A model generated the notes under the pieces. The model made no database searches. It was given only the letters and a program-made list of their open reading frames with translations, and had not been told where the DNA came from. Made by a program: the position numbers and the translations under genes. DNA of 64,000 nucleotides from Craspedostauros australis (lineage: Eukaryota), in assembly GCA_030167865.1 (NCBI GenBank), contig JALAGF010000679.1, positions 1 through 64,000 of the forward strand, given 5' to 3'. Positions within the stretch are counted from its first letter, which is position 1; every line of letters begins with the position of its first letter. Below, one piece after another: positions 25,101 through 50,600 of this stretch.

Positions 25101-25590
25101 CATCCATGCATGTGCACAACACACACACGACAGAACACAAACACAGAGAGCCGTCATCGCTGACACGGCAGGCATCCTAATCCTCACACAACTCTACCAA
25201 TACTCCTCCACTTCACTCCACTCCATCAGCAGACCATCTCACGAGACCAATACGTCGTACACAACCCCACCCCGCAGAAGCTCAAGAGGCTGCAACATCT
25301 CAGACTCACAAAAACCAAATCGAGCCAAGCCAAAGCCACAACATCTCCACCATCCAACCACAACCACAACCACAACCACAACCACAAACACACACAAACC
25401 TTACCACCATCATCACTAAATTTGGCCAACAGCTGACCAAACACACATACTAATACCAATACGAATACTAATACAAACACTATTGGAAACACCCAAGGCC
25501 ACCAAAGACAGCAGCAACCCACCGCAGCCCATTGCCTCCTCCACATCCTCCCACAATACCAATACCAATACCAACAACAGCACAACCAAG

Positions 25591-26373
25591 ATGCCAGTCG
25601 TCAAGAGATCACCCAAGTTCGCCATCCAGCGGCTGCTGAACCCCATGACGCTCGCCTCCACCATCGGCAGCAGCATGGGATCCCTGCAGACGTCATCCGA
25701 GTCACCATCGTCACGATCATCGGAAGACAGCTCGAACTCCAACAGCTCCACGATCGCCACCAACGCCGTCGGCCACAAGCAGGCGCAGCAGCAGACACCG
25801 CCATCACCCGCCGCGCCCACTCGATCGAGGGTCACGTTCACAAAGACCGTCACGATCCGACGAACGATCTCGGCGTGCGATTACACGCCACAGGAACGCC
25901 GCGCCTGCTGGTACAACGACGCCGAGATGAGGGTCATGAAGCAGGAACGACGCGCCACCATCAAGCTCATGGAGAGCGTGGCGGTGGGCAAAGGCTCGCA
26001 CAACACCAATTACTACTGCGCCGTCGACGACGACAAGGACTTTTGCTACCGCGGCCTCGAGCACAAGACGAAGAACGGTTCGCGCATGCGCCAATTCAAC
26101 CAGGTCGATGCCGCGATGGCCGTCATGGACGAGCAGGAGCTGCAAGCGGCGCACGGTATCAACGATCCGGAGACCTTGTCGAGAGTGTACATTTCCTGCA
26201 CGTTGGCGTGTCAAGCGGCGGCGCTCGAGAAGGGACTGCGCGATCAGATGGTCGTCCTTGACCAGAGAGTGCACGTGACCAACATGACGCACAAGCAGCA
26301 CCCGCACCACCAACAACAACAACCAATCCCCCACATGAGACAGCCAAGAAGACTATCGAATGCGGCGGCGTAG
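25591..26373 (+). CDS. Diatom-type hypothetical protein of the 'VxF...WY...RGLE...DEQ' family, 260 aa
   Basis: RVTFTKTVTI...ERRACWY...CYRGLEHKT...AVMDEQELQ...DPETLSRVY...AALEKGLRD; strong coding bias. Confidence 0.8.
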   Translation: MPVVKRSPKFAIQRLLNPMTLASTIGSSMGSLQTSSESPSSRSSEDSSNSNSSTIATNAVGHKQAQQQTPPSPAAPTRSRVTFTKTVTIRRTISACDYTPQERRACWYNDAEMRVMKQERRATIKLMESVAVGKGSHNTNYYCAVDDDKDFCYRGLEHKTKNGSRMRQFNQVDAAMAVMDEQELQAAHGINDPETLSRVYISCTLACQAAALEKGLRDQMVVLDQRVHVTNMTHKQHPHHQQQQPIPHMRQPRRLSNAAA

Positions 26374-27186
26374 ACAAAGGATACTTATTATAATGCTCAC
26401 ATGTTCCACTGATATCATATCATACAACACTACAGTACCAACAAACCATATACTAGTAATGCGCTCCCAACCAATTGAATGGCTTCCACATGTTTGCGCG
26501 CATGTGGCAGTGTTATGAATTTTTATATGAACGTGGATTTGAACAGAGCCGAGTCGAACAGAGTACGAGGATAGAGGAGGACTCTTGTGTTGCTTTCCAG
26601 AGGATCACGTGTTGTGAATGGAGAGGACTATGGTGTGCAATGAACTGCGCCCACCAATCCACCATGTGCTTCTCTCTGGATGTGTTTCGGCAGTCACGAC
26701 TTGTGCCGCATCGATGACGTTTTGGCGATGACCGTCGGAGTGGAACAAGTACTCGTATCGGTGCGCGGCATTGGTTGCGACCATCTGCTTTCGATGGAAC
26801 ATTGGTTGATTGGCACAAGTTGGTCTCAGCATGATGTCGTCGTTGATGGTGGCACACGTCACGTGGTTCTGGCAATGCGCATACCTCGTGCGGGTCAGAG
26901 TAGCAGCTTGTGGAGGAGAGAGTGAGGTCATCAACGCCATGAGAAAGTGACGGCAGCCTCCAAACACAGACACAGTGAACAAGATGTGTTCTGTGGTGAG
27001 GACAAACACACACTATCCCTCTCTCTCTCCAGTTAGATAGACATTTGCACTCAAATACTATGGTATTATACATACTACTGAGTCTAATTTCTCTAATATT
27101 TGATTTTGTTGTGCTGTGTTCTTGGTGGCAAGCCTACGAGCTGCTACTACCTGCCTCCTCTTGCACCATACCTACTGCTGCCTGTT

Positions 27187-28812
27187 TCACAATGGCACGC
27201 CGTCATCATCATCGTCACCATCCTTATCAATCAGCGCCCAATTATCGTAGACGATTTCAACCACCGATCGCTTCTTGTGCTGGTGCAAGTCTTCAAAACT
27301 CGCACTGCTGGAATGGCTGAGGTCATCCTCGAATTCGTCCTCCGTCAGCGATCCTGTCTCGTTGTCGCTTTGCTCGCCATCACATCGAGTCCTCCGCCTG
27401 GACTTGTGCTTCTTGTGCGGCATGTTCTTCAAGAGACGTCGGAAGTAGTTGACCTGTCGCAGGAGACGGAACGCGATGGCGCCCTTCATGTTGCGCAGGA
27501 AGAGCATGTACTTGGGCAGGTACTTGATGATCAAGCGCAGCAATCGGTACGCCCCGACGCCATGGTGCTTCGTGTGTCTCGCAACCTTGCCGAACCAACG
27601 CACGTGGCGTGTTCGCAGGTGAGCGGTGACACGAATGACAGCCTTGGAGCGGAAGAAGTTTCTCATCCAGAAGCCGCGTCGTTTCTGCACGTCCAGGATG
27701 GGTTGCACGTAGATGTGCTCCCACGGGAACAGCGACAGAGTGTCGATGGCGAACCACGATGTGAGATACCGCGCGAAGATGCTCTTGTGGTCTCTGAGGA
27801 TGGTGCCTTCTGCCGTGCGTCGCTCAGTCGTGAAGTTGAGCAGGATGTCGATCATGAACCAGATGTCGCACATGGTCATGAACATGCCACCGAACTTGCG
27901 ATCTCGGATGGCTGCGTGAGTTGCGTACGCGTATGCGAAGGAGAGAACTACCGTCATGGTATCCCAGAGAATCTTGAGAGGATGCTCCATGGGAATGACC
28001 CATCGGCTGCGCTTCGCTGTTGGCGAGGGACGGGCTCTGCTCGCGTTCGCATCCTGGCTGTGCTTCGATTGACGGTACCGTCTCATGCCTGTCGCAGTGC
28101 TGGAAGTGGTGGATGGTCGCATGCTGTGATCCGCAACGTCGTGGTCACACGACTGCAGCGATGACATGGATGTTGACACCTTCATGGAAGGCTTCTTGCG
28201 CTGTCTCAGCCCAGTCGAGGCTGTGGTTGCGGTTGCCATTGTACTTGCTCTTGGCCTTGCCACTGATGATGCTGGGGCTGGCTCATTGAGAAGGAACCTT
28301 GCATTGGCTGTGGATGCGTCCTTGGTGCTTGTGAGAAGGAGATTCGGAAGATCGTCCCAGGACCTGCAGTCCCTCAAGGTGGCATCCAGGCTGCGCGAAG
28401 TTGGCAGGTTCGTGGTGTTGCCTGCCTCGTTTGCCTCGCTGTCATCCATGGAAGGCGAGAGGAGGACGTTCTCATGGCTCCTGGTCCTGCGGAACTCCGG
28501 TCGGGGCTTGTCGTCCATGTCCGGTCCCACCCAGGCCGTCTTGAGCGGCGTGTCGAAGCAGAGGCTTCCGTGACGGCTGCGAGTCCTGCGATGGAAGCTG
28601 GGCATGGATAGGATGGACTGCAGCGAGCATGACGAACTCCGGGATGGCAGGAGCGGCGTTGATACAGATGGAAGATTCGTGCTGTTCACGGTGGAGCCAT
28701 CGCTGTCATCTCCATCCGTTCTCACGGGAGTATCAGGTGGAGTAAGCTGCTGTGCGTTGAGTTCCTGTCGTGCTTCTTCATGCTGCTGCTGCTGTTGATG
28801 GGCGTGTTCCAT
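27187..28812 (-). CDS. Membrane protein with a CNG/EAG/plant-Shaker-type S1-S4 ion-transport N-terminal domain but no pore or cyclic-nucleotide-binding domain, 541 aa
   Basis: WVIPMEHPLKILWD (pre-S1/S1), DIWFMIDILLNFTT (S2), DHKSIFARYLTSWFAIDTLSLFPWE (S2-S3), then Arg-rich helices; acidic tail up to the stop. Confidence 0.8.
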   Translation of the reverse strand: MEHAHQQQQQHEEARQELNAQQLTPPDTPVRTDGDDSDGSTVNSTNLPSVSTPLLPSRSSSCSLQSILSMPSFHRRTRSRHGSLCFDTPLKTAWVGPDMDDKPRPEFRRTRSHENVLLSPSMDDSEANEAGNTTNLPTSRSLDATLRDCRSWDDLPNLLLTSTKDASTANARFLLNEPAPASSVARPRASTMATATTASTGLRQRKKPSMKVSTSMSSLQSCDHDVADHSMRPSTTSSTATGMRRYRQSKHSQDANASRARPSPTAKRSRWVIPMEHPLKILWDTMTVVLSFAYAYATHAAIRDRKFGGMFMTMCDIWFMIDILLNFTTERRTAEGTILRDHKSIFARYLTSWFAIDTLSLFPWEHIYVQPILDVQKRRGFWMRNFFRSKAVIRVTAHLRTRHVRWFGKVARHTKHHGVGAYRLLRLIIKYLPKYMLFLRNMKGAIAFRLLRQVNYFRRLLKNMPHKKHKSRRRTRCDGEQSDNETGSLTEDEFEDDLSHSSSASFEDLHQHKKRSVVEIVYDNWALIDKDGDDDDDGVPL

Positions 28813-31718
28813 GATTGATCCGGTGTCCGCTTTGCCCTTGCGTTATGTTGTGTTGGGTGGTGGTCTGCTCTGTCAGAGAATGGTTTCTGTTGATGTCGCT
28901 GTTGTGGTATGTGAAGATAATGAGAAGTTGTTGTGCTCGCACAGCATCAGAGAGCAATTCGTAATCCGCCAACCGCAGCTCAACTGAAATGCCTGATGGC
29001 AGAGCCTTCGATGCCGATCTTGATGGGAAGAACGAGAGAGCAGCCGTGAGTTCGTGTTCTTGGCTGATCGACTATGACCAAAAAGTGATGTTTCCGTTCG
29101 TGATGGGGTTGCCGTTTTTGTGCGACCGTGTTGATGGCCGTGGTGTCAGAGAAGGTGTCAGCGCCAACAACAATGCCGATGGTTCCACGATACGTGTTCT
29201 CTGTCAATGGAGAGAGAGGAGGTGACTGTGGCCGTTGAGTGTCAGCAACGATGCCCAAGAGAGGAACACGAGGGCAACAAGTTGAAAGACTGTTTGTGTG
29301 TGGACATGGACATCGACATGTGCATCCACATGGACATGAGTGGCGATGCGATGATGCGTTCGCAAAGGCCAAATGGTCAGAGATCCACGACGGGATCACC
29401 AAACCAAGGCAAAGTGAGAGAATGGAAGAGTGACGGTTGGATGAGTTGGTTTGGTCGAAGAAGAAAATCGAAGAGCCGACTGACTGTCGTGGAGTTCGTT
29501 TCTGTGCATTTTCCGCGCTTGTGCGCGAAAGTGTGCTGCCCGAACGACACAAACACTGGCACAAGCAAGACAGGACTTCCATGCCGGTTGTGTCGTGTAT
29601 TTTGCGTGGTGACGAACCCTTTGGGCAGCGACGTCTTGCTTTTCCTGCGTTTGCCTGCTTCCTGTCATTAAATATCAATGGACGAATGCACTTATTTGTT
29701 CCATGTCGCATCTGTCGTGGACTCTGCGTCATCTTCAAAACCACGACAGACCACCAACAAAGCCAACGGAAACGGTTTCGGCAGATTCTCTTGGAACGGC
29801 GGCCTGATGTCGCTTGCGACATATCAATGGTGAATCAGATTCAAAACGTGACTGATTCGACGGCGTTCCACAACGAACAGAACACAAATCCCCAAACGAA
29901 TCCGTGTGGCGAACATGGCACATCGCGCGCATCGCGACACAACACAAACACAGAGAGAACAACGACCATGACGGCCATTTGCGTTCTCGTCATCGTCATG
30001 TTTTCACGAGGCGCGTTGTGCCATGGTGTGTTGTGTCGTGCTTCTGGTTGTTTCATGACATGTGTCCCACGCAACTCACCTGTGCTTTGTTTCTCTTGCG
30101 TTGTTTGCGGGTTGCTCCTTTGCGGCTCTTTGTCGTGGCTGAGGAGTCTAGTGGTATGCCTGATTATGTTGTTTCAGTCGTTGCGTTGCGCCGTTGGGTA
30201 ATTGGTGGAAGCGGGTGTGCGTCTTATGATCCTTCAGGAGCCGCCGACCAATCAATTCAGTACAACCGGGTGCACAGATGAGGACGATACGATACGTTGT
30301 GTTGTGATGTGTTGCGTCACGTTGTTCAGTTTGTTTGCTGATTGATGGCTTGACGATGTTTGGATGTTGTGTCATCGGTTGGATGGGTCACAATCGTGGG
30401 GTGGAGTTTGTGTTGTGATCTGTTTGGATGTGGTCAACGCTTGATGGGGCTCCTTCTCCTCTTGCCGTCGATTGTCGCGTGATGGGTTGGGTTCAGATCT
30501 CCCTGTTCTCTTCTGTCTTCGTGTTGGCGTTGTTGTTGTCACTGTCCACGACGTGATGGCTGCGATGATGGCTCCGATGATGGTGACGGCAGTTCAGTTG
30601 TCCCTGTGGTCGGCATTGATGTTGTTGTTGGTGGTGGTGGTGGTGATGGCTTTGGCGGTTCTGATTTTTCTCTCGTGTTTCGATTCTTTGGTTTTTGTCC
30701 ACGATGTTCTTCACGCGTCCCAAGCACTCCCGAAACCCGAACATGTCGATGAGACGGCCAGACGAAACAGAAAAACAGTCGTGTGCTCCAGATGGCTGCT
30801 GGCGTCACACGCGTCACTCTCAACAGACAAATCGTGCTAGCAATTTACATTCATTTTATTAATGCATGAGGGTTTATATAATCGGGCAGCACGACAAATT
30901 CGTCGTTCCAAATCAAGCCGTTACCATCGTGTCTCATCTCGCCAAATCGCGCGCAAATCGAAGATGCGACGCGCCAAGAAAAGGCCGATGTGAGCGAAAC
31001 AAGGAGAGAACGCCAGGTATCACGAGAGAAAGACCAAGGTCAACAACCAGGACGACAAGAATCGGATCAAATGCATGTTCTTGACATCTGCAATGAGATC
31101 ATCAATCGTGAGAGCAACGTCTGTCGGTGACATCCAAACTGCCTGATCAACTCATCATCCATTTGTATCGGCAATAGTGCCACAGGAGTCAAGACTTGGG
31201 CGTTAACAGTGCCAAGACAGAACAAATACAGTGCGATAGCAACTGAAGCACCATCGACAGCGTCATCGGAAACATCAACAGCGATCGGCAGGTCGTGACG
31301 TTGCATTGGTTCTTCTCGTCTCTTTCATGCCTCCATTCCTTTATTCTGTGTGCACGTCATAGTTCTCTCGCAGCGACACAACAACACCGTCGCTGAATCG
31401 GAGTAAAGGAGAGGAGCGGAGTGGAGTGGAGTGGACAAGAGAGAGGAAAGCGTCTCCCATACCAAGACTCCAGCAACCGCAACGACGCTCGACATTCGCT
31501 CATTCGTTCATTCATTCATTCATTGCCCAGGAATCTGCGCAGGAAGGCATCCCGGTGTCGTGCGTGATCATTGAGCAACCTCAGGATCTCTCTCCAGCAA
31601 CTGCAACGACAACAAAGACAATAACAGCGACAGCAACAGCCAAATACACGGCATCCCTCCGCTGACACCTGCTCGTGCAAGTGCAGATCAATTTGGAGAT
31701 CAATTCACAGACGACGAT

Positions 31719-34700
31719 ATGAGGTACACAGGCAACCTGCACAAGCTGATCGACGTGGCAAACGCCTCGCGCGACAGCCGCTCCAAGTGGGCGCACGTCC
31801 TGCACTACCTCGAGGGCCATACGGTGGCGCACACCAACCATGAGAATCCGCCTCACGATTCGCCCCTGCCGCCCTTCACGGCGCCGTCCGTGGAGCTGGA
31901 GGCCGAGCTGTTTGACCTGCAGGGTCCCAAGCGAGACGAGACGCCGTTGCGCATCGCCTGCAAGGCCGCACCGGCGCAGATCATCGGGGCGCTGTGCCAT
32001 CTGGCGCCGGAAGCCGCGAGGGTCGAGGACTCGCGATGTCGCATCCCGCTGCATTGGGCGTGCCGCAGACCGTCGGACAACGCGGAAACGAACAAGGTCT
32101 TGAAGATCCTCATTCTGGCGTACCCCGAGGGTCTCCTGCAACGTGACGATGGTGGCAGAACGCCCTTGCATTGGCTCTTCTGGTACCACGCCCCCACGCG
32201 CACGCCCAAGGTCGTGGAGATGTTTGCCCACTCGCTGCACCCCAACGATCTGGCCGACGTCAAGCAACCGCGGTTGGGCATCGATGATCGCTGGCCGTTG
32301 CCGGAGGTGCCGCAGACGGGTGGCGACGTCCCGGAGAATGCCTACATCATCGCTGACGCGCGTCATGGTGTGCTGCCGTTGCATTACGCCGTCATGCAGG
32401 GCGCGTCCAAGGATACCATCAAGGCGCTGCTGCATGCCTATCCGGCTTCCAAGATGTGCAAGGATCGCAAGGGACGCACGCCCTTGGCATGGTACCTGGG
32501 TGCGGGACATCTGATCGACAGCCGCAAGCATGTGTGCGGTGAGACCAACGACCCCAACGCGCCGCCGTGGTGGGAGATGAAGCTGTCCACGAAGGTCATT
32601 CAGATGCTTCTGTCCAGCCGCGCGGCGAGGACGCAGGACGACACGGGACGCATGCCGCTGCATTGGGCCTGCCATCTCATCGCGCGCAGCCAGTACGCGA
32701 AGAGCCATGGTTGCCTGGCCTTGAAGGCCGTGCAGCTCATCCTCGACAACTACGCCGACGTCCTCACGTGCAAGGACAAGGAGGGCAGAACGCCGTTGCA
32801 GCTCTTCTTCGATGTCGTCGTCGCGCTGCAGAAGCAGGATTTCGAGCGCGACTTTGGAAACCAGACGCTGCGCGATAACATCGATCTCAAGCTCGGGGGA
32901 CCGGTGGCATGGGATCCGCCCTCGCAGCTCATCGAACTGCTCTTGAAGAGCCCGGAATCGGATGGGCATGAAGTGTCGTACAGGACGGATCATGAGCGTC
33001 CCGTCTCGGCGGCTGCCATCGAGGACACCGTCGGTGCGTTGCCCATTCATGCTGCGTTGCGCGTTGCCACGGCGCCTCAGATCATCCGCATGCTCATCCA
33101 AGCGAATCCCACCAGTTTGGTGCACACATCGGAGGAGGTGCTGCAAACACCGCTGGTCCATGCCTTGAAGTCACCCTACACGGCGCCGCTGCAGTCTCAC
33201 GAGACCATCGATCTTCTCATGCAGGCCTACGTGACATCCAGACACGGAACCTTCATGGATGGACGCCTGGCGCTCAAGATGGAGGATTCGGCCGGCAAGT
33301 ACCCCCTGCATTACGCCAGCGAGAATCAGGCCTCGCTGGAGATCGTCAAGATCCTGTGCGAGAAGTTCCCGCGCGCTGCCATGTTCCAAAGCTCCGACGG
33401 TGATCTGCCGCTCCACGGCCTGCTCTCAAAGGCCAATCTCTTCGAACCACCGGAATCGGGCATAGCCACCGGCGCGTCGCTGGCGCAGTCCATGGCTTTC
33501 CTTTCCGACAAGGAAATCGCATGGAAGAAGGAGCTCGAGAAGGTGCAGCGCTCCGTCATCGACGTCCTCGTGCAGCCGCTCATTGAGTCGGAGCAGCATC
33601 TCAAAATCGGCAGTTCCGCGCATGGAATGACGCCGTTGCATATCGTGGTGGCCTTCGACGCCGTGTCCTACGAGACCGTGTACCGCATGCTCGATACCTG
33701 CCCCGCAACGGCAGGCATGATAACGACGGCAGAAGGATACAACTTCTCCTGCATGGACTTGCACGAACTGCGCAAGAAAGACAGCGACGACATCGACCAG
33801 TGGAACGCAATGCGCGAGCTCCTCTTCGCCTTCTGTCCCACCATCGACGCGTGGCGTTCCAAGGACGACCTCCTCGAGGCATGCGTCAAGCTCATCCGGC
33901 AGGAAGCCGAGACCAACTCCAGCTTCCACCTCGATCGCCTTGGCAGCATCCAGGACAAGAAGGATGGCGCCCTGTCCATCGCGGAAACTTTGTCCTCCAT
34001 CGCTCCGCCGGAAATCGACACAGCGTACCGACCAAAGCAGAAGCTGCCGGGTGTGATCTCGCCATCCAAGAGCGCTGCCTTGTCACCTGGCGCAGCCGAG
34101 CCGTCATCACGCAAGAAGTACCAACGCAAGCAACGCCCGCGCAAACGGCCGGAGCCCAAGTTCGAGGTGCACAAGTCCATCTACGACGATGACAACTTCG
34201 TGGGCAGCTACGAGGTTTCCGACAATTCGGATGAGTCCGACGTTGACGAGGAGTACTACTCGAGCGGAGAGTCCGAGTACAATTCGCAGGACGAGGAGGA
34301 CACTTTCTTCGACCGCAGCATCATCCACAACGGATCCTCCATGGAGACGGGATCGTGGGCGGGCAGCGTGCAGCAGAACCAGAGCATGGGATCGCGCAAA
34401 AAGTCGCAGCAGTCCGGCTCCTCGATGCCAAAGATGATCGTCGAGTCGCCGGCGCATTTTGAAGAGAAGAAGATGGAGGAGGACGCAGCCGCGATGAAGC
34501 CGATGGATCTGCGATCCGCGCTCAGCGACTCCAACAACCTGCTCAGCGACGTGGCGATGCGATTGTGGACCTTCTTCGTCCTGTACAACAACAAGAAGAA
34601 GCCAGAAGATAACTACCTCAGACAGGTCGAAGCCGTTCTGAACGACATGGACTTTGAGATCGTCGAGAAGCTCCTGGGCATGGCAGTCCCGGACTATGGT

Positions 34701-37487
34701 GCGCAATACCTGGACCAAGGCCAAAGCCTCGAGGGCATCACGTTACAGGACGTCGCCAGTCCCCGGCCGAAGGCCCTGTTCCACAGCTTCTCGCACTTCC
34801 TTGGCAAGTTCGAATTCCCCACTGAGCGCGATGGAGTTCTGTTGCATCGCAGCAACGACAACAGCACCGTCCTCGTGCGAGCGGTGGAGCACGTCATTGC
34901 GACGGAGTCATTCCGCGAAGGCAAGAAGCTTGCCCCAGGCACGGCAGAGGAGGCCATCTGGAGTCACGGCGAGGCTGAGCGCGATGAAGATGATTACATG
35001 GAATCCAAATTCGAGCTAGGCAGAAGGCGCGTCTACTTCAAATTCATGAAGCACCCTGATGCGTACGAGAATGAGGTGCAGTGCCGCAAGCAGCTGAGCA
35101 TGGACAGCGCAGATGGAAGGACCGATGGTGACGGCAGCAATCGCAATGGCAACGGCAACCTGCTCGTGCCGTTGCGTCAGAAGTACAGCTTCTTCGGCGA
35201 TACCAACGCAGACAAGCGGTACAAGCACGATGCCTCCGACGAACGCTTCAACATGCTTCACTTCCTCGGCAACGAGTCCATCTGCCTCACGGATTACCCG
35301 TACGCCCTCGTCTTCCCACATTCCGAGGAGGGTGATCTATTCGACTACTTCTACCATCACGGCGTGGAGGACATGGATGAAGTGGCAGATATCGCAGCGC
35401 AGGTCGCGCGCACTCTGCAGCTCATGCATACGAAGCGCGTCATCCATGGCAACGTCTCCATGCGCACCATCTTCATGGTGCCACGTGTTGAGGATACGCA
35501 ACGATCGTGGGCCATGTCCGACTTTTCCAACTCGAGCCAGCTCAGAGGCGGACAGCCAGCATTCTCCGGCAGCATCTCGCATGATGGATCGGCGCAGTTC
35601 TCAACATCCACCCTGCCACCGGAGATGTTCGTCAAGCTGACAGCGGGAGAATCCAGGATGTACCATGCCTACTGGGAGGCTGTGAAGGAACAGTACGACG
35701 TCGAGGTTGATCAAACCGTGGTGACGCCGCGTGTGGACATTGAAACAGGCAGCACATACGTGGTCCGGTGCCACTACGTTCCCAAGGAGGAGTACAGCGC
35801 TGCAGGCAAACCCCAGGACAAGAAGAAGCTGCCCGAACTTCCGTACAAGCTGCTGCCAACCCGCGAGAGCATCGACATTTGGTGCTTCGGCCAAGTGCTG
35901 TACGCTCTGTGCACGGGTGGACGGCCGCTGTTCCCGTTGAACACGAAGAGCCTTCAGCTGCTGGATTACGTCGACATCAATGGGTGGACCGACGAGAAGG
36001 CCACTTCGCTGATCACGGAGCACGTGAAGGACCCGCTGGCGCAGGACCTGCTGCTGCAGCTGCTGTCATGCTACGAGAACCGATCGACTCTGAAGATGGA
36101 GGCAATCCTTAAGCACCCATTCCTCAGGAATGCCGGCAGAAGCGGCAGAGACGATGACGATGATGACGACTACTACGGTGCCTTCAGCAGCACGAACCCA
36201 GCCCAGGATGCGGCTGCAAAGCGCATCATCGAACGCCGAACGCAGGCCACGATGAAGCAGCGACGATGGCGCCAGACCGTGATCACAGAACGGGCAGAGA
36301 CCGACTGGTTGCAGCAGCGCACAGCCTCCATCAACTGCTGGAACTTCAAGACGCTGTGTCGCATCAACTTCTCGGCAACGGAGATGGTGAAAGCCCACCT
36401 GGGCCGCCAGACGGAAGCGCTGGCGATGCCGTGCGGCATCATCATTCTGCCGTACAAGCTATCGGCGAAGAACAAGAAGGGCATGCTGGCACCGACGTCG
36501 AAGAAGGACGTGGAACGCTCGGAACGCATGGGGACGTTGCTGCTTTCGCTGGCGAGGGTGTGCTCGTTTGCCGTCCATGTGACGGAGACGATAGCCTCGG
36601 GCGAAGGTCCGTGGACCGCAAGGCACCTGATCGAGTCGCTGAAGTACACCGACCTTTCGTTCCAAGATATGTACAAGGATGTCGAGAAGATCGCCGCCGA
36701 ACACGTCGAAGCGTATCGCTCTGATCCCTCGATGGTGGCACGCAAGCTGGTGTCGAGGAAGGTGCGTGAGATCGTCAGGTTCTTCCGCGATGCCAAGTCG
36801 GCCTACATCTACCTCGTCGACGAAGCCAGCGGCGTGCCTCTGGCCGACAATCAGTACGAGCCGTACCCGCTGTCCGTGCCCGAGGCGGGCATCGAGAACA
36901 TCCTGCTGAAGATGCTGCCCTTCATGCACATTTGCTGCATGTACGCTCGTGGATCCGCCGGTGGCATCTCCGGGTTGGTGAAGCTCATCTTCGAGGCAGC
37001 GTACCCGCACGTGCCACCCTCGTGGAACTCGTCCGCGAACGGGCTGACACACAGACTGAACGACCCCCAATCGTTGAAGGAGGCGGCGTACCTGCAGGAC
37101 AACATTGCATTCATGACGGGATCCAAGACCGCCGATCCTTGCGGCGACTTGCTCTTCATCCGTGACGTGATGCTGAGACGCGACATGGCGCGCAAGTTCT
37201 GCGACATGGTCCGCATCCAGTCCGCCAACGCGACGTTCTGGACCACGAAGGAGAATGCCGAGGAGATTCAGGAGGCGACAGAGTCGTACACGTTCCGTGA
37301 CGCCCTGGAGATCCAGCGCACGCTGGAGGCCAAGCTGGACAAGAACGAGATGACGATCAAGAAGCTGGAGGAGGAGATCGAACGCCTCAAGTTCCACAAC
37401 AAGATGAACTTGACCTTGCCTGACAACGTCGATGGTGCGGATGGCAACGAATCCGATGACATCTCCGAGGCCAACGCCGTCGAGTAG
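31719..37487 (+). CDS. Giant ankyrin-repeat protein with a C-terminal degenerate protein kinase (pseudokinase) domain and coiled-coil tail, 1922 aa, intronless
   Basis: More than 10 ankyrin-like motifs (IPLHWAC, GRTPLHW, LPLHYAV, GRMPLHWAC, LPIHAAL, YPLHYAS, GMTPLHIV). Kinase subdomains: VYFKFM, ENEV, GDLFDY, VIHGNVS, SDFS, TLPPEM, DIWCFGQVLY, ILKHPFL. Confidence 0.9.
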   Translation: MRYTGNLHKLIDVANASRDSRSKWAHVLHYLEGHTVAHTNHENPPHDSPLPPFTAPSVELEAELFDLQGPKRDETPLRIACKAAPAQIIGALCHLAPEAARVEDSRCRIPLHWACRRPSDNAETNKVLKILILAYPEGLLQRDDGGRTPLHWLFWYHAPTRTPKVVEMFAHSLHPNDLADVKQPRLGIDDRWPLPEVPQTGGDVPENAYIIADARHGVLPLHYAVMQGASKDTIKALLHAYPASKMCKDRKGRTPLAWYLGAGHLIDSRKHVCGETNDPNAPPWWEMKLSTKVIQMLLSSRAARTQDDTGRMPLHWACHLIARSQYAKSHGCLALKAVQLILDNYADVLTCKDKEGRTPLQLFFDVVVALQKQDFERDFGNQTLRDNIDLKLGGPVAWDPPSQLIELLLKSPESDGHEVSYRTDHERPVSAAAIEDTVGALPIHAALRVATAPQIIRMLIQANPTSLVHTSEEVLQTPLVHALKSPYTAPLQSHETIDLLMQAYVTSRHGTFMDGRLALKMEDSAGKYPLHYASENQASLEIVKILCEKFPRAAMFQSSDGDLPLHGLLSKANLFEPPESGIATGASLAQSMAFLSDKEIAWKKELEKVQRSVIDVLVQPLIESEQHLKIGSSAHGMTPLHIVVAFDAVSYETVYRMLDTCPATAGMITTAEGYNFSCMDLHELRKKDSDDIDQWNAMRELLFAFCPTIDAWRSKDDLLEACVKLIRQEAETNSSFHLDRLGSIQDKKDGALSIAETLSSIAPPEIDTAYRPKQKLPGVISPSKSAALSPGAAEPSSRKKYQRKQRPRKRPEPKFEVHKSIYDDDNFVGSYEVSDNSDESDVDEEYYSSGESEYNSQDEEDTFFDRSIIHNGSSMETGSWAGSVQQNQSMGSRKKSQQSGSSMPKMIVESPAHFEEKKMEEDAAAMKPMDLRSALSDSNNLLSDVAMRLWTFFVLYNNKKKPEDNYLRQVEAVLNDMDFEIVEKLLGMAVPDYGAQYLDQGQSLEGITLQDVASPRPKALFHSFSHFLGKFEFPTERDGVLLHRSNDNSTVLVRAVEHVIATESFREGKKLAPGTAEEAIWSHGEAERDEDDYMESKFELGRRRVYFKFMKHPDAYENEVQCRKQLSMDSADGRTDGDGSNRNGNGNLLVPLRQKYSFFGDTNADKRYKHDASDERFNMLHFLGNESICLTDYPYALVFPHSEEGDLFDYFYHHGVEDMDEVADIAAQVARTLQLMHTKRVIHGNVSMRTIFMVPRVEDTQRSWAMSDFSNSSQLRGGQPAFSGSISHDGSAQFSTSTLPPEMFVKLTAGESRMYHAYWEAVKEQYDVEVDQTVVTPRVDIETGSTYVVRCHYVPKEEYSAAGKPQDKKKLPELPYKLLPTRESIDIWCFGQVLYALCTGGRPLFPLNTKSLQLLDYVDINGWTDEKATSLITEHVKDPLAQDLLLQLLSCYENRSTLKMEAILKHPFLRNAGRSGRDDDDDDDYYGAFSSTNPAQDAAAKRIIERRTQATMKQRRWRQTVITERAETDWLQQRTASINCWNFKTLCRINFSATEMVKAHLGRQTEALAMPCGIIILPYKLSAKNKKGMLAPTSKKDVERSERMGTLLLSLARVCSFAVHVTETIASGEGPWTARHLIESLKYTDLSFQDMYKDVEKIAAEHVEAYRSDPSMVARKLVSRKVREIVRFFRDAKSAYIYLVDEASGVPLADNQYEPYPLSVPEAGIENILLKMLPFMHICCMYARGSAGGISGLVKLIFEAAYPHVPPSWNSSANGLTHRLNDPQSLKEAAYLQDNIAFMTGSKTADPCGDLLFIRDVMLRRDMARKFCDMVRIQSANATFWTTKENAEEIQEATESYTFRDALEIQRTLEAKLDKNEMTIKKLEEEIERLKFHNKMNLTLPDNVDGADGNESDDISEANAVE

Positions 37488-43117: not shown

Positions 43118-46100
43118 CTAGAATACATCCTTGGATGGCGTCACATCACCATCGATGCCTATCCATCCATCCGGCCATTCGAATGCGAATGCAAAGTGGT
43201 CAATGTTCTCCCAATGGTGAGACTTCTCCTTGTTCGGGAGGAAGGAGTACCAGGTGTCCATCATCGTCATGCCGTGGTACCCGCGCATGCGGTTGATGTA
43301 CCCCGTGAACGTCGAGAACCACGTGCCAGCGAATGCACGGCCTCGACTTGATATTATCGTGTCGATCATGCCGAAGTAGTTGGGGTCGAGGTCGCCCAAG
43401 CCGGCCAGTTCGAAGTAATCATCGAGGAAGCGGATGTCGAAGTGGGCGGCGAGCGGGTCGAAGAACGTCTTGTTGCGTTCGTCCGTGGCGATGAACAGGA
43501 TCTCCTTCGGCTTCCAAATCTCCTTCGTGTTCTCGTACCATTCCTCTGCCGGTATCTTGACTTTCTTGTACTGCAGTTCGCCGCGTCTGACGTGAAGGGC
43601 GGAGAAGCCTCCGGCGCCTTCCTCGTCGGGGTCGAAACCGCGTTCCGCGGCCTCTGCCTGCAAGGCCTTGACGATCTTGCCAGCAGAGCAGTAGATCTGG
43701 TCGTTGTAACGCAAGTAGTCTCTGACGAACCGCTTGTAGTAATTGCCAATGGCTGGATTGGTGAAGTGTATGAACCCGTAGAAATGTGCCAGCAACCGCC
43801 ACTCCTTCTCACCCGCGCGGAAATGAACAACGGCTTGCTGGTTCATATCTGGATTCCAGAAGGCGCGCTTTCTCGTCTGATGTTGGCATAGTCACAGCAT
43901 GATGGATGGAATGATGCATGGTGCATGGTATGAATACACACCAATCAAGACGTCGGGTTGGACGCCAGGTTTGTTGTGCATAGTAATCGGATGTACGAGT
44001 ACATGAGTTTGGAGAGAGATGCGTGAGTTTGCGCCTGTACCACATGCAGACTCCGACCATGCTCGAGTCAACACCATTCACGCTACATCCAGCTATCCAA
44101 TCATCCACCAAGCCATGCAGGCACATTCATTTGCGATCTGCGCAGCACTTACCCCACAAAAGGTGGAAATGCTCTCTTCGCTCTCGTCGGACACTTCATC
44201 GCCGTTGAACACGTCTTCATCAAACACAAAGCAGTAGTCCTTCGCTCTTGCGTCCGGCACATGCCCAACCTGGCTCAAGTACTGCGCGATGTTCTCGCAA
44301 GCATTGTCCATCTTCTTCATCTTGTTGCAAACCTTGACACTTTTCATGACGCCTTCTCTCATATCTTCTGGAATTGGAGCAACCCCGTTGGCTCCACCTT
44401 CCTTCTCCACGAACTCCTCTGTGGAGATGATCTTGACCTTCTTCTGGAATTCTTCGGTGTCGAGCGGGAAGAAGTCGGCAAAGCCGCGATGGATGTTTTT
44501 CAAGTCGCCCTGTGTGGTTTGGGAAGGCATGGTATGGCATGGTGCGGCAACAATGTGCATTTTTTGGCAGGTCGCATTGTAGAAGATAATGATGAGTGAT
44601 TTGGATGTATGTGGCAAACAAAAGAACGCGTTGCTCTTTCAAGTCATTCATGTCATCACAACGTAATAACTACCAACGCAAACGCTTGCCAGCCAGCCAA
44701 CGAGCCAACCACTCGGTTCCCACAACGACAACGACTTACCCGAAGACGATACAGCGGTGCCTTCGGTGGCAGGACCAAGGTTCGGCCTGTTGCAGCCGCA
44801 ATGACGAAAATGATCTCCATGGACATACGGATGTTGTTCCAACCGCCTGTGTCAACCGTAAAGGTGATGTACTTCTCAGCATCACCGTCGCTGCCCTTGA
44901 ACGGTGGCTGGAACTGCTGGTCACGTTCGCCCTGAGGATCGTTCCAGTACGCCAACGAGTCGACGTTGATGTCACAATTGATGTGCGCCCGTGCTGCGCT
45001 GTTCAACGCAGGAGTTTCATCAACCGGTAATCCGGCCACACCACGGGCCGGTGGCTTCGATGCGAATCCTTCATCCGTCTTCAGATCCGCCAAGGTGTAC
45101 TTGTTCACGAAGGTGCGTTTGCTTTTGGTGACGGCCTTGCCCTCTGCTGGCGGCGAGATTGGTTCCGCGACTGGCTCCAGCTCGTGCTCGATCCATTCGT
45201 CACCATCAATCCCGGTCCAGCCCACGGGCCACTCCTTGGCCGGGTAGTTGCCGACGGGGTACGTCCATCCCTGCATGGAATCCTTGCGTTCCAACCAGCT
45301 GTACCAAGAGTCATCCATGGAATGTCCGAGGTACCCGCGCATGCGGTTGATGTAACCAGTGAAAGTGGAGAACCACGTGCCAGCGAACTTCCTGCCATGA
45401 CTCGCCACGATGGTGTCGATCATGCCGAGGTAGTACTTGTCCAGATCCTCCAAACCTGCAATCTCCCAGTAATCATCGAGGAAACGGACAGGATTGTGCT
45501 CCTTGATGGGATCGAAGAAGGTCTTGTTGCGTTCGTCAGTCGCGATGAAGATGGTCTCGCCTGGCTGCCACAGCTCCTTGGTGTTCTCGTACCACTCTTC
45601 CGCAGGCAGCTTGACCATCTTGTACTGGAAGTCGCCTCGGCGGATGTGCATCGACGACCATCTGCCATACCCCGCATCTTCGTTCAGTGCGTGGACGATC
45701 TTGCCTGCCGCGCAGAAGATCTGGTCCTTGTAGTGCAGGTAGTCCCTGACGAAGCGCTTGTAGAAGTTGTCAATGACGGGATCTGTGAAGTACATGAAGG
45801 TGTAAAAGTGCTGCAGGATGCGATGCTTCATGTTCGCCGCGTCCCAATGAATGAGCTTGGCGTCACGCAGCTCCTTGTCGAGGTAGTGGATCTTGCGCTT
45901 CTCGCCGCAGAAGCGTTGAATGGCCTCCTTGACTTCGCCGTCAGGTTCCTCCTCCGTCTCGAGGTATTGCTTGTCAAAGATGAAGCAGCTCTTGGAGCCG
46001 GACATATCCGGTTGCATACCCTTTTCTCTCAAGACCTCGTGCAGAATTTCGCAGGAGATCTCGGAAGTCGGGTTGTGCAGGCACTTCTCCGCCACAGGCC

Positions 46101-47148
46101 TGAGCTTTTCCATGCCTTCGTCGTCGAGGCCCAGAATGCCCATGCCCTCCTTTTCCAGAAATTCGGACATGGTGATGACCTTGACCCTGTTTTGGAACTC
46201 CGGCGTGTGGATCGGGAAGAAGTTGCCGAACGATTTGACGTTCTCCTTGCCGGTTCCCAGCAGGTAGAACGGAGCCTTGGGCGGCAACACCAAGGTGCGT
46301 CCCGAGACGGCAGCAAGCACGAAAATGATCTCCATGCTCATGCGGATGTTGTTCCAGCCACCTGGATCCGCCTCAAAGGTCAAGTAGGACCCCGGTTGCG
46401 ACAGGAAGGGACTGATGAATTCTTCATCGCGCTTGCCCTGCGGACTGTTCCAGTACGCGATGTCATCCACGTTGATGTCGCACTCGATGTGACCTGGTGC
46501 AGCACCCACCAACGCTGGCGTTTTGGACATGGGCAATCCTGACACGCCACGGGCCAGCTGTTGCTTGGGTGCTGTCTTCACGATGCCAGTGTCTGTATTC
46601 TCGTTCACCTTATTCTCATTGTTGTTGTTCTCAATGTTCTCAATGTTCTCATTGTTGTTGTTGTCGTCGCCGGTGTTACTGATGACATTGTTGCTTTCCT
46701 GATCACCGACCACCGCATTATCCTCTGCAGGAGCAGCAACGGTGACAGCAGCAGCATTATTCGCCGGTACTTGCTGTGAATCAGCGTTGACCCTCTCCGG
46801 AAAGGTCTTCGCGTGCGCTTGATGTCTGAAAGACGCACCTGCCTTGTCGGATAGCTTCTGCTCCTTCCTGATGGCCTCCCTCAGTTGCTGCGATCTCTTG
46901 ACCATGGCATCCAGCGAGGCTGGAGCGTGGAAGTGCTTCGAATTGCCGCTGCTGCTGTGCTCCAAGAGCAGCACGGGCAGGAACGTGGTGAAGGCGAGTA
47001 TCAAGGCTCCCACGGCCACCATGGTGATCTTGGGCTTCGTCCATTTCGTGACCAGGTGCGTGGGTACCTCCTTCTGCGGTCCGCGCACCGCCCGTTTCGA
47101 CCTGTACTTCGCCCTCGGCCTCGGGGCGTTCATCAGGGACGACAACAT
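43118..47148 (-). CDS. GDP-fucose protein O-fucosyltransferase-family (POFUT2/O-FucT-like) type II membrane protein with two tandem catalytic domains; exons 47148-44740, 44509-44153, 43876-43118; ~1174 aa
   Basis: Motifs GGWNNIRMSME...GRTLVLPP, H[IV]RRG[DE][FL]QY, FIATDERNK and GMIDTI...FAGTWFSTFTGYINRMRGY each occur twice; two phase-0 GTAAGT...CAG introns. Confidence 0.88.
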
Positions 47149-47633: not shown

Positions 47634-50600
47634 CTACAATTCATCCTCTTCTGGTTCTTCTTCAGCGGACTTAACCTCCTCGGTGGATTCCTCCTTCGCT
47701 GGTTCTGCCTCCTCCTTGGTTTCGGCATCGGCATCGGCATCAGCATCGGACTTGGCCTCGGCGGCAGGCTCCTCGTCGCTGGCCTTGCCGTCAGCATCAG
47801 CATCCGTGGCGTTCTTCTTCTCGGCCTCCTCTGGCTTCTTGGCTGGCTTTGGTTTTGGCTTCTTGCTCAGCTTCGTCACCAACTTCTCGATGGACTTGGT
47901 CTGGGTTGGAACATCGTTGCTGGTGAAGGCCGGGTCTTCGTGCGGGGCCTTCTCAGCCTGAGCGGCCTGCTGCTCCTCGATCCACTTCCTGGCGTCGGAC
48001 ACCTTGGCGAGTACGTCGGATCGCTCCTCGTCGGTGACCTGCGGCTTCTCGTCGGCCCACTTGGTCATGAGGCTCTCGACCTTGGCCAGCTTCTTCTCGA
48101 GGGCCTTGATGGCAGCCGGGCGGTCCGTCAGCTCGGAGGCGCGGAACCACACCTTGCTGGCCGGTCCGGAGATCTCGGCGTACTTGGCCTGCATCACGGC
48201 GAGGTCGGCACCATCGGCGTCGTAGAGCCATTCCTCCGCATCCTCGGCGATCTTGCTCAGCTCCGCGCGCTGTTCTTCGGTGGAGACCTTGTTGACGAGC
48301 TCCTCGTCATCGATGAGCTTGTTGCGGATGTAGTAGATGTAGCTCTCGACCTTGTTCTTCGCTGCCTCGAGCAGCATGCGCTCCTCGTCCTTGCGGTCCA
48401 ACTCGACCATCTTGGCCTTGGATTCTGCCATGATCTCGGCGGAGTATGGCTGCACCTTGCCGACGTAGTACTTGACGACATCGAGCTTCTTCTTGTGGAC
48501 GCGTTTCTTTTCCTTTCGCATGAACGCAGGTTTTTTTATGCGGAGACCAAACAAATTCTTTTTTCAGATCAGTACTGGTGTCCTCATTCGTTCATGCATT
48601 CAACAGTTGATTCAAATCGCTGATTCATTTGGCATCACTTGATTCAACGCGTCTCCATCCAATCAAATCCACAAATGTGCTCATCCAATCGTTGCAATTC
48701 CATTGATGGCCCTTCATCTCAAACGCATCACTTCAGCAAACTGCAATCATCATGCATCCACCAACCATATTCACAGCCACAGTCACAGCCACAATGACCA
48801 GGCAAACGAGCATCCCACAATTTCTTACCTTCTCAACCTTGACGGTCTTCTTCTCATCCTTCTTTTTCTTGTCATCCTCGGCATCATCGCCTTCCTTCTT
48901 CTCAGCATCCTCGGCCTTGTCTTCGTCTTCCTTCTTGTCGCTGTCGTCCTCCTCGGTGGCGGTTTCGTTGTCCTTGACCTCGACCTCTTCTTCGACGGTG
49001 TAAATCTCCTCCAACGCGATTTCGGCACGCACGAGCTCAACGATGCCGCTTGTGCTCAATTCGAATTGCAGGGAGACCTTTGGCTTGCCGAGTCCCTTCT
49101 CTTCCATTTCCTTGGCAAAGGCTTCGACGCCGGTGATGTTGTATCGCTGCAGCTCGAGGGCGTCGCCTTCCGGGAAGTTCTCGGCCTCATCGTAGGCCAA
49201 GGCGCAGTGCACATCCTGATCGTGCGTGAAGGCGATCGTCTTCTTGACGCCGACGCGACCCAGGGCCTTGAACATGGTGGCCTGCTTGGCCCACACCTCT
49301 TCGTCTTCCGAGGCTGGTTCCTGCGGTGTGAGGTCGCTCAGTGCGAGACCGATGGCGAATGGGTTGACGTCGGTGAGACCCACGTGTCGCACGCGGAAGG
49401 CGGTGGAGACGTTGGCACCGAAGAAGGCGGCGCCCAGCGCCATACTCTCATCGGAGTTGATGTGCATACCGAGCTCCTTGCCGTTCAAGGCGGCGGAGAG
49501 GTCGGCCTGGATCTTGGGCACGCGCATGGCACCGCCGATCATTTCGATTTCATCGACGTCGTCGAGGGTGAGTTCGGCCAAGGCAAGAGCATCGGTCACT
49601 GGCTTCACGGCACGTTCCATCAAATCAGCACACAGCTCTTCCAGTTTGTTGCGGGAGACATGGAGGGACAGGGTGATGTCGTCGTAGAGGGAGTCCATGT
49701 GGACCGGGATGTCCTGGTTGGCGGACAGCACGTGCTTGACCTTGTTGGCCTGCAGACGGATCTTGGTCATGGCGCGCGGGATGTCGCGGATGTCCTTGTC
49801 GTGCTTGCGTGCGCTGCGCCATTTCTCGTTGAAGGTGTCGGCGAAGTATTCGACCAGCCGGTTGTCCAGGGCGTTGCCTCCGAGGGTGGCATCCCATCCC
49901 TTGGCGAGGACCTCGATGGAACCCACTCGCTTCATCTTTTTGCTGTACTTGGATTCCGGGATCTCGTAGGAGTGGTACTTGACCAGCGACACCTGCAGCG
50001 AGCTGGCTCCCAAGTTGTAGAATAGGTAAATCTGCGGCTCCTCGAGAACCTTGCCCATTCCGAAGTTGAGGGCGGCGGCCGTGTTTTCGTCGATGAGACC
50101 CAGCACGTTGAGGCCGGCGAGTTCCGCAGAATCCAGCATGGCCTGACGCTCGTACTGCGTGGCGAAGGATGGAATGGTGAGGACGCAGTCGCGGATCTCG
50201 CCCAACGCGGCGCCCTTCTCGATGCCGTAGGCCTTGGTGATTTCCTTGGCATGACCGAAGACCATGGCGGTGAGTTCCTCCGGCGTGAAGGAATCCTTCT
50301 TGTCGACAATGAGGTCCAATCCCTTCCTCGTCTCGTTGTACACCGGAATCAATGGCATATGGCGCTCCGTCAAGACCTAACATGTGATTGCGTGTGTGCG
50401 TGTGTGCGGTCGAATATTTGGTTGAATATGTGAATGGCAGGTGGAGCACGATGGCGTGTAGTTGTGTGAGTGATGATGCCAGTCATAATGCGAATATTGC
50501 ACAAGATCATCTCTGGAGAGACGAGAGCATGTTGCACTTCTTTTCACTGAAACGCACTGCACTGCACTTCACTTCATTCCACCCTTGTTGGAGTACACTC

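Follow-up and report, generated by a model that had tools for sequence, protein, structure and literature searches.

Does a voltage sensor that has parted from its channel remain a complete sensor, and if so, to what end would it be kept? This question is raised by a gene of the diatom Craspedostauros australis situated at 27187..28812, on the minus strand, of a stretch of 64,000 nucleotides (contig JALAGF010000679.1, positions 1 to 64,000; hereafter, the window). A first-pass annotation, made from the letters of the DNA, had regarded the product as a pore-less sensor-like protein derived from channels of the CNG/EAG/Shaker type, in which recognizable S1–S3 segments were followed by several arginine-rich amphipathic stretches and an acidic tail. 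We find that this protein (P0001) descends from the KCNH/HCN/CNG clade, whose channels bear the cyclic-nucleotide-binding domain, or CNBD; that it is predicted to contain a complete S1–S4 voltage-sensor domain (VSD), folded as a four-helix bundle; and that it belongs to what the sequence searches indicate to be a large, strongly conserved diatom family, whose architecture is best explained by the loss of the pore, the C-linker, and the CNBD from a gene of CNBD-type channel descent. The gene and its parts, each with the evidence by which it was delimited, are the following:

27187..28812, minus strand: whole open reading frame (ORF), 541 amino acids plus the stop codon (27187-27189), no intron detected; ORF list and colinear contig.
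28009..28812, minus strand: N-terminal region, residues 1-268, rich in Ser, Thr, Arg, and Pro; composition and alignment.
27901..28008, minus strand: pre-S1 motif W-V-I-P-x-E-H-P and S1, residues 269-304, with W283 and D284 at the inner end and H299-x-x-I-R-D-R as the S1-S2 loop; hidden-Markov-model alignment with KCNH1 and with HCN3, and a helix spanning model residues 24-50.
27829..27885, minus strand: S2, residues 310-328, with an acidic or amide residue at 316, F319 as the charge-transfer-centre Phe, and then D322, N326, and F327; alignment to KCNH1 S2.
27679..27789, minus strand: S3 together with an outward extension of it (residues 342-378), D357 lying in the inner and E365 in the outer half; three model helices, 88-98, 100-107, and 110-124.
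27562..27672, minus strand: conserved basic insert placed between S3 and S4, residues 381-417, made up of an S4-like helix ("S4a") and a short helix, with the G418-x-G420 turn; helices at model residues 127-148 and 150-163, and conservation.
27424..27552, minus strand: final long helix, S4 by its predicted position in the bundle, residues 421-463; helix at model residues 167-209, and fold alignments.
27190..27423, minus strand: C-terminal tail, residues 464-541, a short basic cluster and then an acidic stretch; composition, and a predicted local distance difference test score (pLDDT) below 55 at model residues 211-287.
27190..27240, minus strand: C-terminal motif, residues 525-541, consisting of W-x-x-[LIVM], an acidic run, and G-V-P-L at the very end; alignment with relatives.

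The ORF starts at the first ATG past an in-frame stop codon. A contig from a public run—the kind of that run not being on record and its RNA label being a guess, it was not counted as evidence of expression—is colinear with the genome over 27066-28422, an interval that spans the stop codon, with no differences and no joints; the contigs of the same run covered 27066-28422, 28578-28795, and 28774-29095, with nothing on the flanks examined. The N-terminal region, which is probably disordered and cytoplasmic, is conserved only with the closest relative (P0002), its length ranging from 0 to 792 residues across the family, and in the window protein contains several R-x-x-S/T sequences that are possible kinase sites. 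The tail carries a net charge of -17 from residue 478 to residue 541, immediately before the stop codon, in keeping with the first-pass description; and this acidic stretch is probably disordered, to judge from the structural model, in which the portion after S4 shows a pLDDT below 55 and no helix. Pfam recognized in the window protein nothing other than Ion_trans, in a weak, sub-threshold match confined to the sensor half of the profile (positions 17-115 of 241). On the opposite strand, an ORF of 283 amino acids (27313-28164, plus strand) lies wholly inside the sensor gene and, having no support of its own, is taken for a by-product of the codon composition of that gene.

The sequence evidence on the origin of the sensor was uniform. 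A search of the Protein Data Bank (PDB) with the single sequence returned KCNH1 (E = 6.7e-07) and HCN3 (E = 3.3e-06), while the family profile (alignment A2, 120 sequences) retrieved 52 different sequences with E<=0.01, every one a CNBD-family channel: KCNH1 (E = 7.6e-17), KCNH5 (3e-16), and HCN3 (4.3e-14), after which ranked HCN4, HCN1, and KCNH2, together with AKT1 and GORK (about 1e-8), LliK (1e-7), and CNGA1 (8e-4). These profile alignments begin at the pre-S1 motif and stop where S3 ends, residues 271-366 being aligned to S1–S3 of KCNH1, so that the segments first annotated at about 28003-27715 were correctly recognized. A profile comparison with P0260, a 1953-residue protist channel possessing a CNBD, likewise gave a probability of 96% over the pre-S1 to S3 part. 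The portion after S3 had no detectable sequence relative among the solved structures when profile A3 was compared with the PDB; the region from S4a to S4 searched alone in this manner, with E up to 10, matched only two designed helical repeat proteins, which we rejected as compositional. The descent of the sensor from the CNBD-type clade, as originally proposed, is thus confirmed by sequence (52 of 52 PDB sequences) and, as detailed next, by fold (17 of 17 chains with Z>=8).

To examine the remainder of the bundle we modelled residues 255-541 with AlphaFold2 on a 120-sequence alignment, which calculation gave a mean pLDDT of 74 and a pTM (predicted template-modelling score) of 0.61, the core (model residues 11-210) ranging from 75 to 94. 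In the numbering of P0001, the helices of the model occupy residues 278-304, 310-328, 342-378 (in three pieces), 381-402, 404-417, and—as one long helix—421-463. Foldseek found 29 matches in the PDB at E<=0.001, with CNBD-family channels throughout the matches listed, and S1–S3 fitted KCNH5 with a root-mean-square deviation of 2.1 Å over 101 columns; the re-examination of these matches by VIA-align gave Z values of 10-11.8 for the window protein. A wide VIA search of 48,161 chains, independent of Foldseek, yielded 17 chains at Z>=8, all from CNBD-family channels, below which came an unrelated helical bundle at Z 7.5, Kv4.2 at 6.9, and KvAP at 6.6-6.8, the isolated KvAP sensor (1ors_C, Z 6.6) having 127 of 132 residues aligned. 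A second AlphaFold2 model, of a 395-residue Stephanodiscus member (P0108; 149-sequence alignment), had a core pLDDT of 84-94, reached Z 13.5, and placed S4 in the same way; its last helix has a single kink, located at the conserved R-N-M-K-G, and extends to residue 327. In that model a confident (pLDDT 76-94) and very basic helix at residues 82-111 just precedes S1 and partly aligns with the HCN pre-S1 region in some superpositions, whereas the model of the window protein shows no helix before S1.

Which of the arginine-rich segments is S4 can be read from the alignment ranges and the numbers of residues aligned. Against CNBD-clade channels, the fold alignments comprised 117-157 residues at Z 10-13.5, and in all rows the part of the model that was aligned ended at 208-219 (P0001 462-473), opposite the end of S4 in the target: residue 290 in HCN1, 346 in Eag1, 544-545 in hERG, 194 in GORK, and 151 in the KvAP sensor. 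Nearly all the S1–S4 residues of the targets were aligned (for instance, 131 of 137 in GORK), and some 55-65 residues of the model were left unaligned. We infer from these ranges and counts that the last helix is S4 and that residues ~373-433 would constitute an insert between S3 and S4. The three arginine-rich strings of the first-pass annotation were located at residues 393-406, 422-431, and 448-462; and with the last such helix (~421-465) occupying the S4 position in both models, the domain is predicted to be a complete S1–S4 sensor, which prediction overturns the view of an incomplete one while leaving the S1–S3 assignment intact. The AlphaFold check that had been proposed was in this manner carried out twice, each time giving a four-helix bundle superposable on the sensors of CNBD channels. 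A first topology of our own, deduced from hydrophobic moments and with S4 at 386-408 followed by two amphipathic surface helices, was dropped after the two models and the superpositions.

The residues upon which voltage sensing depends are nearly invariant. Their conservation, counted over the 243 aligned family proteins, was as follows:

S1: W283 in 237 of 238, D284 in 233 of 238, T287 in 237 of 240.
S1-S2 loop: H299 in 235 of 241; I302; R305.
S2: position 316, E in 115, D in 47, Q in 37, and N in 34; F319 in 238 of 242, D322 in 242 of 242, N326 in 237 of 242, F327 in 242 of 242.
S3: D357 in 243 of 243, E365 in 241 of 243.
S4, 434: K in the window protein; basic in 232 of 238.
S4, 437: L in the window protein; L or M in the family.
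S4, 440: R in the window protein; basic in 229 of 234.
S4, 443: K in the window protein; basic in 232 of 233.
S4, 446: I in the window protein; V, L, I, or M in 232 of 232 (hydrophobic gap).
S4, 449: R in the window protein; basic in 232 of 232.
S4, 452: R in the window protein; R in 230 of 231.
S4, 455: H in 190 of 232; Asn in the window protein.
S4, 458: R in the window protein; R in 177, H in 23, and K in 10 of 231.

The every-third series of S4 at 434, 440, 443, 449, 452, and 458 is accordingly basic in 210-232 of some 231-238 members. The charge-transfer centre is present, F319 together with D322 and D357 being aligned to the corresponding residues of KCNH1, and hydrophobic residues replace one another freely at the S1 positions facing the lipid. 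In hERG, six acidic residues have been described, in the inner half of S1 (D411), in S2 (D456, D460 in the middle, and D466 in the inner half), and in S3 (D501, inner, and D509, outer), of which D411, D460, and D509 were said to occur in the EAG family only (Liu et al., 2003; PMC2217355). By order and depth, D284, position 316, D322, D357, and E365 would correspond to hERG D411, D460, D466, D501, and D509, respectively, if the residue-by-residue link that we draw between hERG and KCNH1 is correct; the outermost S2 acid of hERG has no counterpart, position 312 being hydrophobic. The hallmark set of a voltage sensor—the F319 plug, the counter-charges D284, E/D316, D322, D357, and E365, and the every-third basic S4—is complete.

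The putative insert, which the first-pass annotation did not distinguish, is itself conserved and basic. Its first helix (381-402) carries an every-third series of its own, in which R388 is basic in 243 of 243 members, A391 is Ala in 204, position 394 is basic in 232 of 243, 397 in 189 of 237 (Ala in the window protein), and 400 in 226 of 234, with H403 in 212 of 234; S4a is followed by the short helix and then by the near-invariant G418 (231 of 234). The median net charge of residues 373-433 is +15 over 234 members, and the insert, along with the stretch 429-444, is conserved at nearly every position rather than along one helix face only. When the profile of 384-408 was matched against the protein's own profile, the best fit was at an offset of 52, onto 436-460, the two sharing F, R, V, and R-x-L-R-x-x-H, with a score of 5.8 as compared with a mean of -20.2 (standard deviation 9.9) over 35 offsets, a value reached by 13 of 5000 column shuffles; once the choice among 35 offsets is allowed for, these figures are no more than suggestive of an origin of the insert helix by duplication of S4. 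If the orientation of the channels, with the N-terminus inside, has been kept, the insert would face the outer or lumenal side.

Nothing resembling a pore follows this sensor. No G[YF]G motif was found in the window protein; the 2.7 kb downstream of the gene contained no stop-to-stop ORF of >=40 amino acids that by eye resembled a pore or a CNBD; and the eight largest same-strand downstream ORFs in the window gave no Pfam match at E<=0.01. Relatives presented the same picture, since 231 of the 243 aligned proteins reach the last helix, beyond which there remain a median of 66 and a maximum of 322 residues, and in none of these 231 does a potential transmembrane segment (a 19-residue window with a mean Kyte-Doolittle value >=1.6) occur there. 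Among the 29 members longer than about 660 residues, Pfam found a weak Ion_trans match in 17, never past profile position 170 of 241, and no match at all in the other 12, no domain apart from Ion_trans being detected in any. We further scanned the neighbourhood of 18 genomic loci from metagenomes (1-3 kb downstream), obtaining from 16 of them 89 same-strand ORFs of >=70 amino acids, none of which matched cNMP_binding or the part of Ion_trans that covers the pore, and whose products varied from locus to locus (DUF218, HEAT, RAMP4, ceramidase, and aminotransferase, for example); overall, Pfam detected no cNMP_binding domain in the window protein, in any of the 29 long members, or among the 97 ORFs examined downstream. 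Longer fused forms, of 948-2705 residues, were not found, and a search for forms of 1562-4460 residues returned only one distant full-length channel, P0260 (E = 5.5e-5), such blanks being weak evidence. The absence of S5-P-S6, of a selectivity filter, and of a CNBD noted in the first-pass annotation was therefore borne out in the window protein, in the downstream ORFs, and in the 231 relatives past S4. Its remark that there is no sign of a following exon likewise agrees with our data, in which none was seen, the C-terminal motif is common to relatives including transcriptome ORFs labelled "type:complete", and the contig is colinear across the stop codon.

Two observations touch upon the search for pore elements. 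In 20 of the 243 members (L056 and L069, for example) the turn leading from the insert to S4 (P0001 residues 415-421 and their equivalents) reads G-Y-G or G-F-G, which sequence mimics the K+ filter motif without flanking pore helices and is taken for a chance occurrence within the conserved G-x-G turn; the fuller T-x-G-[YF]-G is present in only two of the 243. At locus L043, a 726-residue ORF (4207-6384, plus strand) with Ion_trans positions 40-139 only lies downstream of the family gene at 1858-3831 and constitutes, on this metagenome contig, a tandem paralogue belonging to the same sensor-only family. No poly(A) run was found at the end of any of 79 metagenome loci, so that the loci are not sortable in that way into transcripts and genomic DNA.

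Orthologues having the same truncated architecture, which the first-pass annotation had proposed to seek, are numerous. A word-indexed search with residues 255-480 gave 123 proteins at E<=0.001, with a core identity of 43-79% and lengths of 298-892 amino acids, and when 1.84 billion cluster representatives were searched with a profile, at least 183 clusters (50% identity) matched at E<=1e-30, a number that rose to 649 at E<=1e-10 and to 6693 at E<=1e-3; the best 150 of these were listed, the boundary between the family and ordinary channels lying beyond those listed matches. The members bearing a full organism name all come from diatoms—Stauroneis, Nitzschia, Pseudo-nitzschia, Seminavis, Cylindrotheca, Entomoneis, Chaetoceros, and Stephanodiscus, the last with two paralogues—while other labels are incomplete, one beginning with "Kryp"; these genera we take to cover both pennate and centric diatoms. 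Several members, including the closest relative P0002 (79% core identity), come from a transcriptome collection and bear the source label "type:complete". Over 194 core codons, the ratio of nonsynonymous to synonymous substitution rates (dN/dS; Nei-Gojobori) was 0.02-0.18, with a median of 0.061, in 72 pairs of metagenome relatives (70-98.5% amino-acid identity, dS<2), which pairs are not independent, some loci being near-duplicates, and do not include the window gene, whose dS against all the metagenome loci was saturated. The core of the family is under strong purifying selection, a result agreeing with the initial argument that so long an intact ORF speaks against simple decay. Such of the refuting conditions set out in the first-pass annotation as were examined left its reading standing.

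The very end of the protein is also shared. Of the 120 proteins in alignment A2, 64 terminate in GVPL, and 137 of 231 members end in P-[LFYWM], in 127 of which an acidic run precedes, with W-x-x-[LIVM] a few residues upstream of the terminal motif. A midpoint-rooted FastTree phylogeny of the cores contains clades whose members almost all bear the motif, alongside a 22-tip clade (support 1.0) that lacks the motif and keeps the core. A role of this acidic motif in sorting or in partner binding is a guess.

What, then, might such a sensor do? The first-pass annotation had proposed a proton or ion conduit, a regulator, or a scaffold. The reading that we favour, with a probability of roughly 0.35, is that of a stand-alone sensor whose VSD would itself be the conduit for protons or cations, by analogy with Hv1 and HCNL1. 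S4 would shift with the membrane potential and, with no effector domain after S4, the output would most likely be a conductance via the sensor, in the form of a proton or small-cation "gating-pore" path, for which HCNL1 above all would be the model. In that protein, protons traverse an HCN-type VSD, owing to a Met that interrupts the Arg series of S4 (PMC7306766), and an Arg-to-His change in S4 creates a proton shuttle in channels and in Ci-VSP (PMC5065317). The hydrophobic gap at 446 and the usual His at 455 would fit a conduction path of this kind; the basic, His-containing insert and the conserved His299, both presumed to be on the outer side, might tune gating by pH or by metal ions; and the acidic C-terminal motif may serve in sorting or in the binding of a partner. 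A more elaborate version, which we consider doubtful, would make these proteins lineage-specific diatom sensors in which each monomer is a voltage-gated proton or cation path and hence a pore-free counterpart of HCNL1, the outer basic His module derived from an S4 duplication tunes gating by pH or metal, and the diatom-wide multigene family could control pH or voltage either in a compartment peculiar to diatoms or, during excitability, at the plasma membrane.

Several points weigh against conduction through the sensor, a step that we postulate from the analogies just cited. The hydrophobic plug F319 is intact; the only conserved acid of S1 is D284 at the inner end, so that—by helix position, no alignment with Hv1 being involved—there is no mid-S1 acid like the selectivity residue of Hv1; rung 455 is Asn and not His in the window's own protein; and R-x-W-R-x-x-R, the S4 signature of Hv1, occurs in one of the 243 members. 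In addition, the placement of the insert and the assignment of S4 rest on alignment ranges and aligned counts. The Arg ladder of classic HCN channels is also interrupted, by a Ser, and yet their sensors do not conduct protons (PMC7306766), indicating that a gap in the ladder is insufficient by itself. Diatoms, moreover, already possess Hv-type channels (PMC10377628), and TMEM266, another sensor-only protein, moves with voltage but apparently forms no channel (PMC6392501; 2024 review "Voltage sensors").

The last example leads to the alternative that survives best, a tentative one that we nonetheless hold to be possible: a voltage-dependent, non-conducting regulator that would pass the signal to other proteins, be it within the membrane (in trans to a pore-only subunit or a transporter, for instance), via the S3-S4 insert, or via a C-terminal motif whose exposure alters as S4 moves. 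KCNH channels severed between S4 and S5 retain voltage-gated currents on co-expression of the halves (PMC4389246), complexes can arise between a sensor-only protein and the pore-only Kir2.1 (PMC13755035), and TMEM266 is a working sensor with no known conductance (PMC6392501; 2024 review); the conservation of 429-444 and of the insert at nearly all positions is, furthermore, what would be expected of packing or contact surfaces, and the terminal motif is maintained in 137 of 231 members. Nevertheless, the 16 loci scanned have no conserved neighbour gene (eukaryotic gene order being a weak guide), the free variation of the lipid-facing residues of S1 gives no sign there of a fixed interface within the membrane, and the well-supported 22-member clade keeps its core despite lacking the C-terminal motif.

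Less probable still, and in our judgment unlikely, is that the sensor fold was retained with loss of voltage sensing, the protein acting as a scaffold, as a lipid- or silica-facing protein, or as an ion or pH receptor that uses the outer basic insert. The net charge of 373-433 (median +15) is uncommon in outer loops and hints at some task other than plain voltage sensing, and the long, variable termini contain no recognizable domain in the 29 long members; but it is precisely the electrically active residues that are the most conserved—the Phe plug, four or five counter-charges, and six rungs of S4—and a scaffold would not need them, which makes the conservation pattern hard to reconcile with a non-electrical task. 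Finally, the notion that the channel gene has decayed or was wrongly annotated (being a pseudogene, or one whose pore exons were missed), which derives from the general expectation that S1–S4 of the CNBD clade precede S5-P-S6 and a CNBD, is hardly credible in view of the intact 541-residue ORF, the C-terminal motif common to relatives from many genera, the 231 relatives lacking a hydrophobic segment after S4, the 89 ORFs from 16 loci plus the eight window ORFs with neither an Ion_trans pore half nor cNMP_binding, the median dN/dS of 0.061, and the colinearity of the contig across the stop codon.

Compared with known systems, the family shows both likenesses and differences. With the CNBD-clade channels (KCNH EAG/ERG/ELK; HCN; the plant Shaker-like AKT/KAT/GORK/SKOR; and CNG/CNGC) the family shares the pre-S1 motif, the W-D at the inner end of S1, the acid-x-x-F-x-x-D-x-x-x-N-F of S2, the S3 Asp, and the outer S3 acid, EAG-specific according to Liu et al. 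(PMC2217355); it differs from them in lacking S5-P-S6, the C-linker, the CNBD, and a PAS or HCN domain, in bearing a conserved, basic addition of some 55-65 residues between S3 and S4, and in the diatom protein ending after S4 in only a probably disordered acidic tail. HCNL1, from zebrafish sperm, resembles the diatom protein in the hydrophobic break of the S4 ladder—Met169, versus Val, Leu, Ile, or Met at 446, which may not be the equivalent position in the ladder—and in having an HCN-type sensor that in HCNL1 is the permeation path, whereas conduction in the diatom protein is only predicted; in contrast, HCNL1 is an animal tetramer with a plugged pore domain and a CNBD (PMC7306766). KCNH-type S1–S4 also exist as a separate polypeptide in the engineered split channels, though these halves need the matching pore half (PMC4389246).

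Among proteins that are naturally sensor-only, Hv1 has cytoplasmic termini and has homologues in diatoms (PMC10377628), but is closer to Nav/Cav sensors (2024 review) and is characterized by a mid-S1 Asp and an invariant S4 Trp (PMC10377628), neither of which was seen in the diatom family, and by a C-terminal coiled coil, for which the models show no clear counterpart, the tail of the window protein being without a predicted helix and S4 of P0108 running on to residue 327. TMEM266 (HVRP1), with partly structured termini, undergoes voltage-driven movements and has an extracellular Zn2+ site (PMC6392501); it is, however, a vertebrate protein of Nav-like origin with a coiled coil after S4 (2024 review) and has no detectable sequence relation to the diatom family. 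Ci-VSP/TPTE and SLC9C1 couple a sensor to an output other than a pore, namely a phosphatase in the former and a Na+/H+ exchanger plus a CNBD in the latter; Pfam found no such effector in the window protein or in the 29 long members, a PTEN-like phosphatase or C2 domain after S4 included. Chains of Hv1, VSP, and TMEM266 were absent from the sequence and fold matches listed, which absence does not show that the folds differ.

The pore-less sensors named in the 2024 review "Voltage sensors" are Hv1, TMEM266, the VSPs, and SLC9C1, of which Hv1, TMEM266, and SLC9C1 are related to sensors of the Nav/Cav type. A second, independent sensor-only origin, from the HCN/EAG clade, would make the shedding of the pore a repeatable evolutionary route. 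We found no description of a sensor-only CNBD-clade protein in diatoms in the literature outside subscription journals, a result in agreement with the initial judgment that the protein was undescribed, nor was the family found in the main texts of a survey of eukaryotic CNBD channels (PMC7576140), of a survey of diatom Ca2+ channels (PMC11085791), or of the Seminavis genome paper (PMC7335047), the supplements of which might list the genes. In centric and pennate diatoms alike, the family has persisted under strong selection, a genome often having several copies, and its core of ~200 residues offers a small protein in which an HCN/EAG-type sensor can be studied on its own. Diatoms being electrically excitable and ecologically dominant, a conserved and unstudied family of sensors provides a direct lead into their membrane physiology.

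A query of the ESM Atlas with P0249 returned the cluster of its own family and other short Ion_trans clusters, one of which—106 proteins of ~222 amino acids annotated as "Ion transport protein domain-containing", with Haptophyta the commonest source, Ion_trans on 68%, and a score of 0.91 from language-model features—may be another short sensor-only family or a group of Hv-type channels.

As for the rest of the window, no other channel-related gene was present among the 16 large ORFs scanned. At coordinates below 27187..28812, the ORFs at 4919-6658 and 6753-8012 (both plus strand) jointly encode an FtsH-type protease, the first with FtsH_ext and the start of AAA and the second with the rest of AAA, the AAA lid, and Peptidase_M41, the two probably being separated by a short intron near 6659-6752. 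At ~25300-25450 there is a simple-sequence repeat whose six-frame translations are runs of the dipeptides LW, GC, HN, TN, and QP, and downstream of it a 260-residue ORF (25591-26373, plus strand) with no Pfam match. On the other side, the ORF at 31719-37487 (plus strand) encodes 1922 amino acids with ankyrin repeats and a weak protein-kinase match at residues 1186-1279, and the minus strand carries ordinary eukaryotic genes, namely a GDP-fucose O-fucosyltransferase (44656-47148), a fragment of Hsp70 (48733-50358), and a DNA-binding protein of the HSF type (57349-58839).

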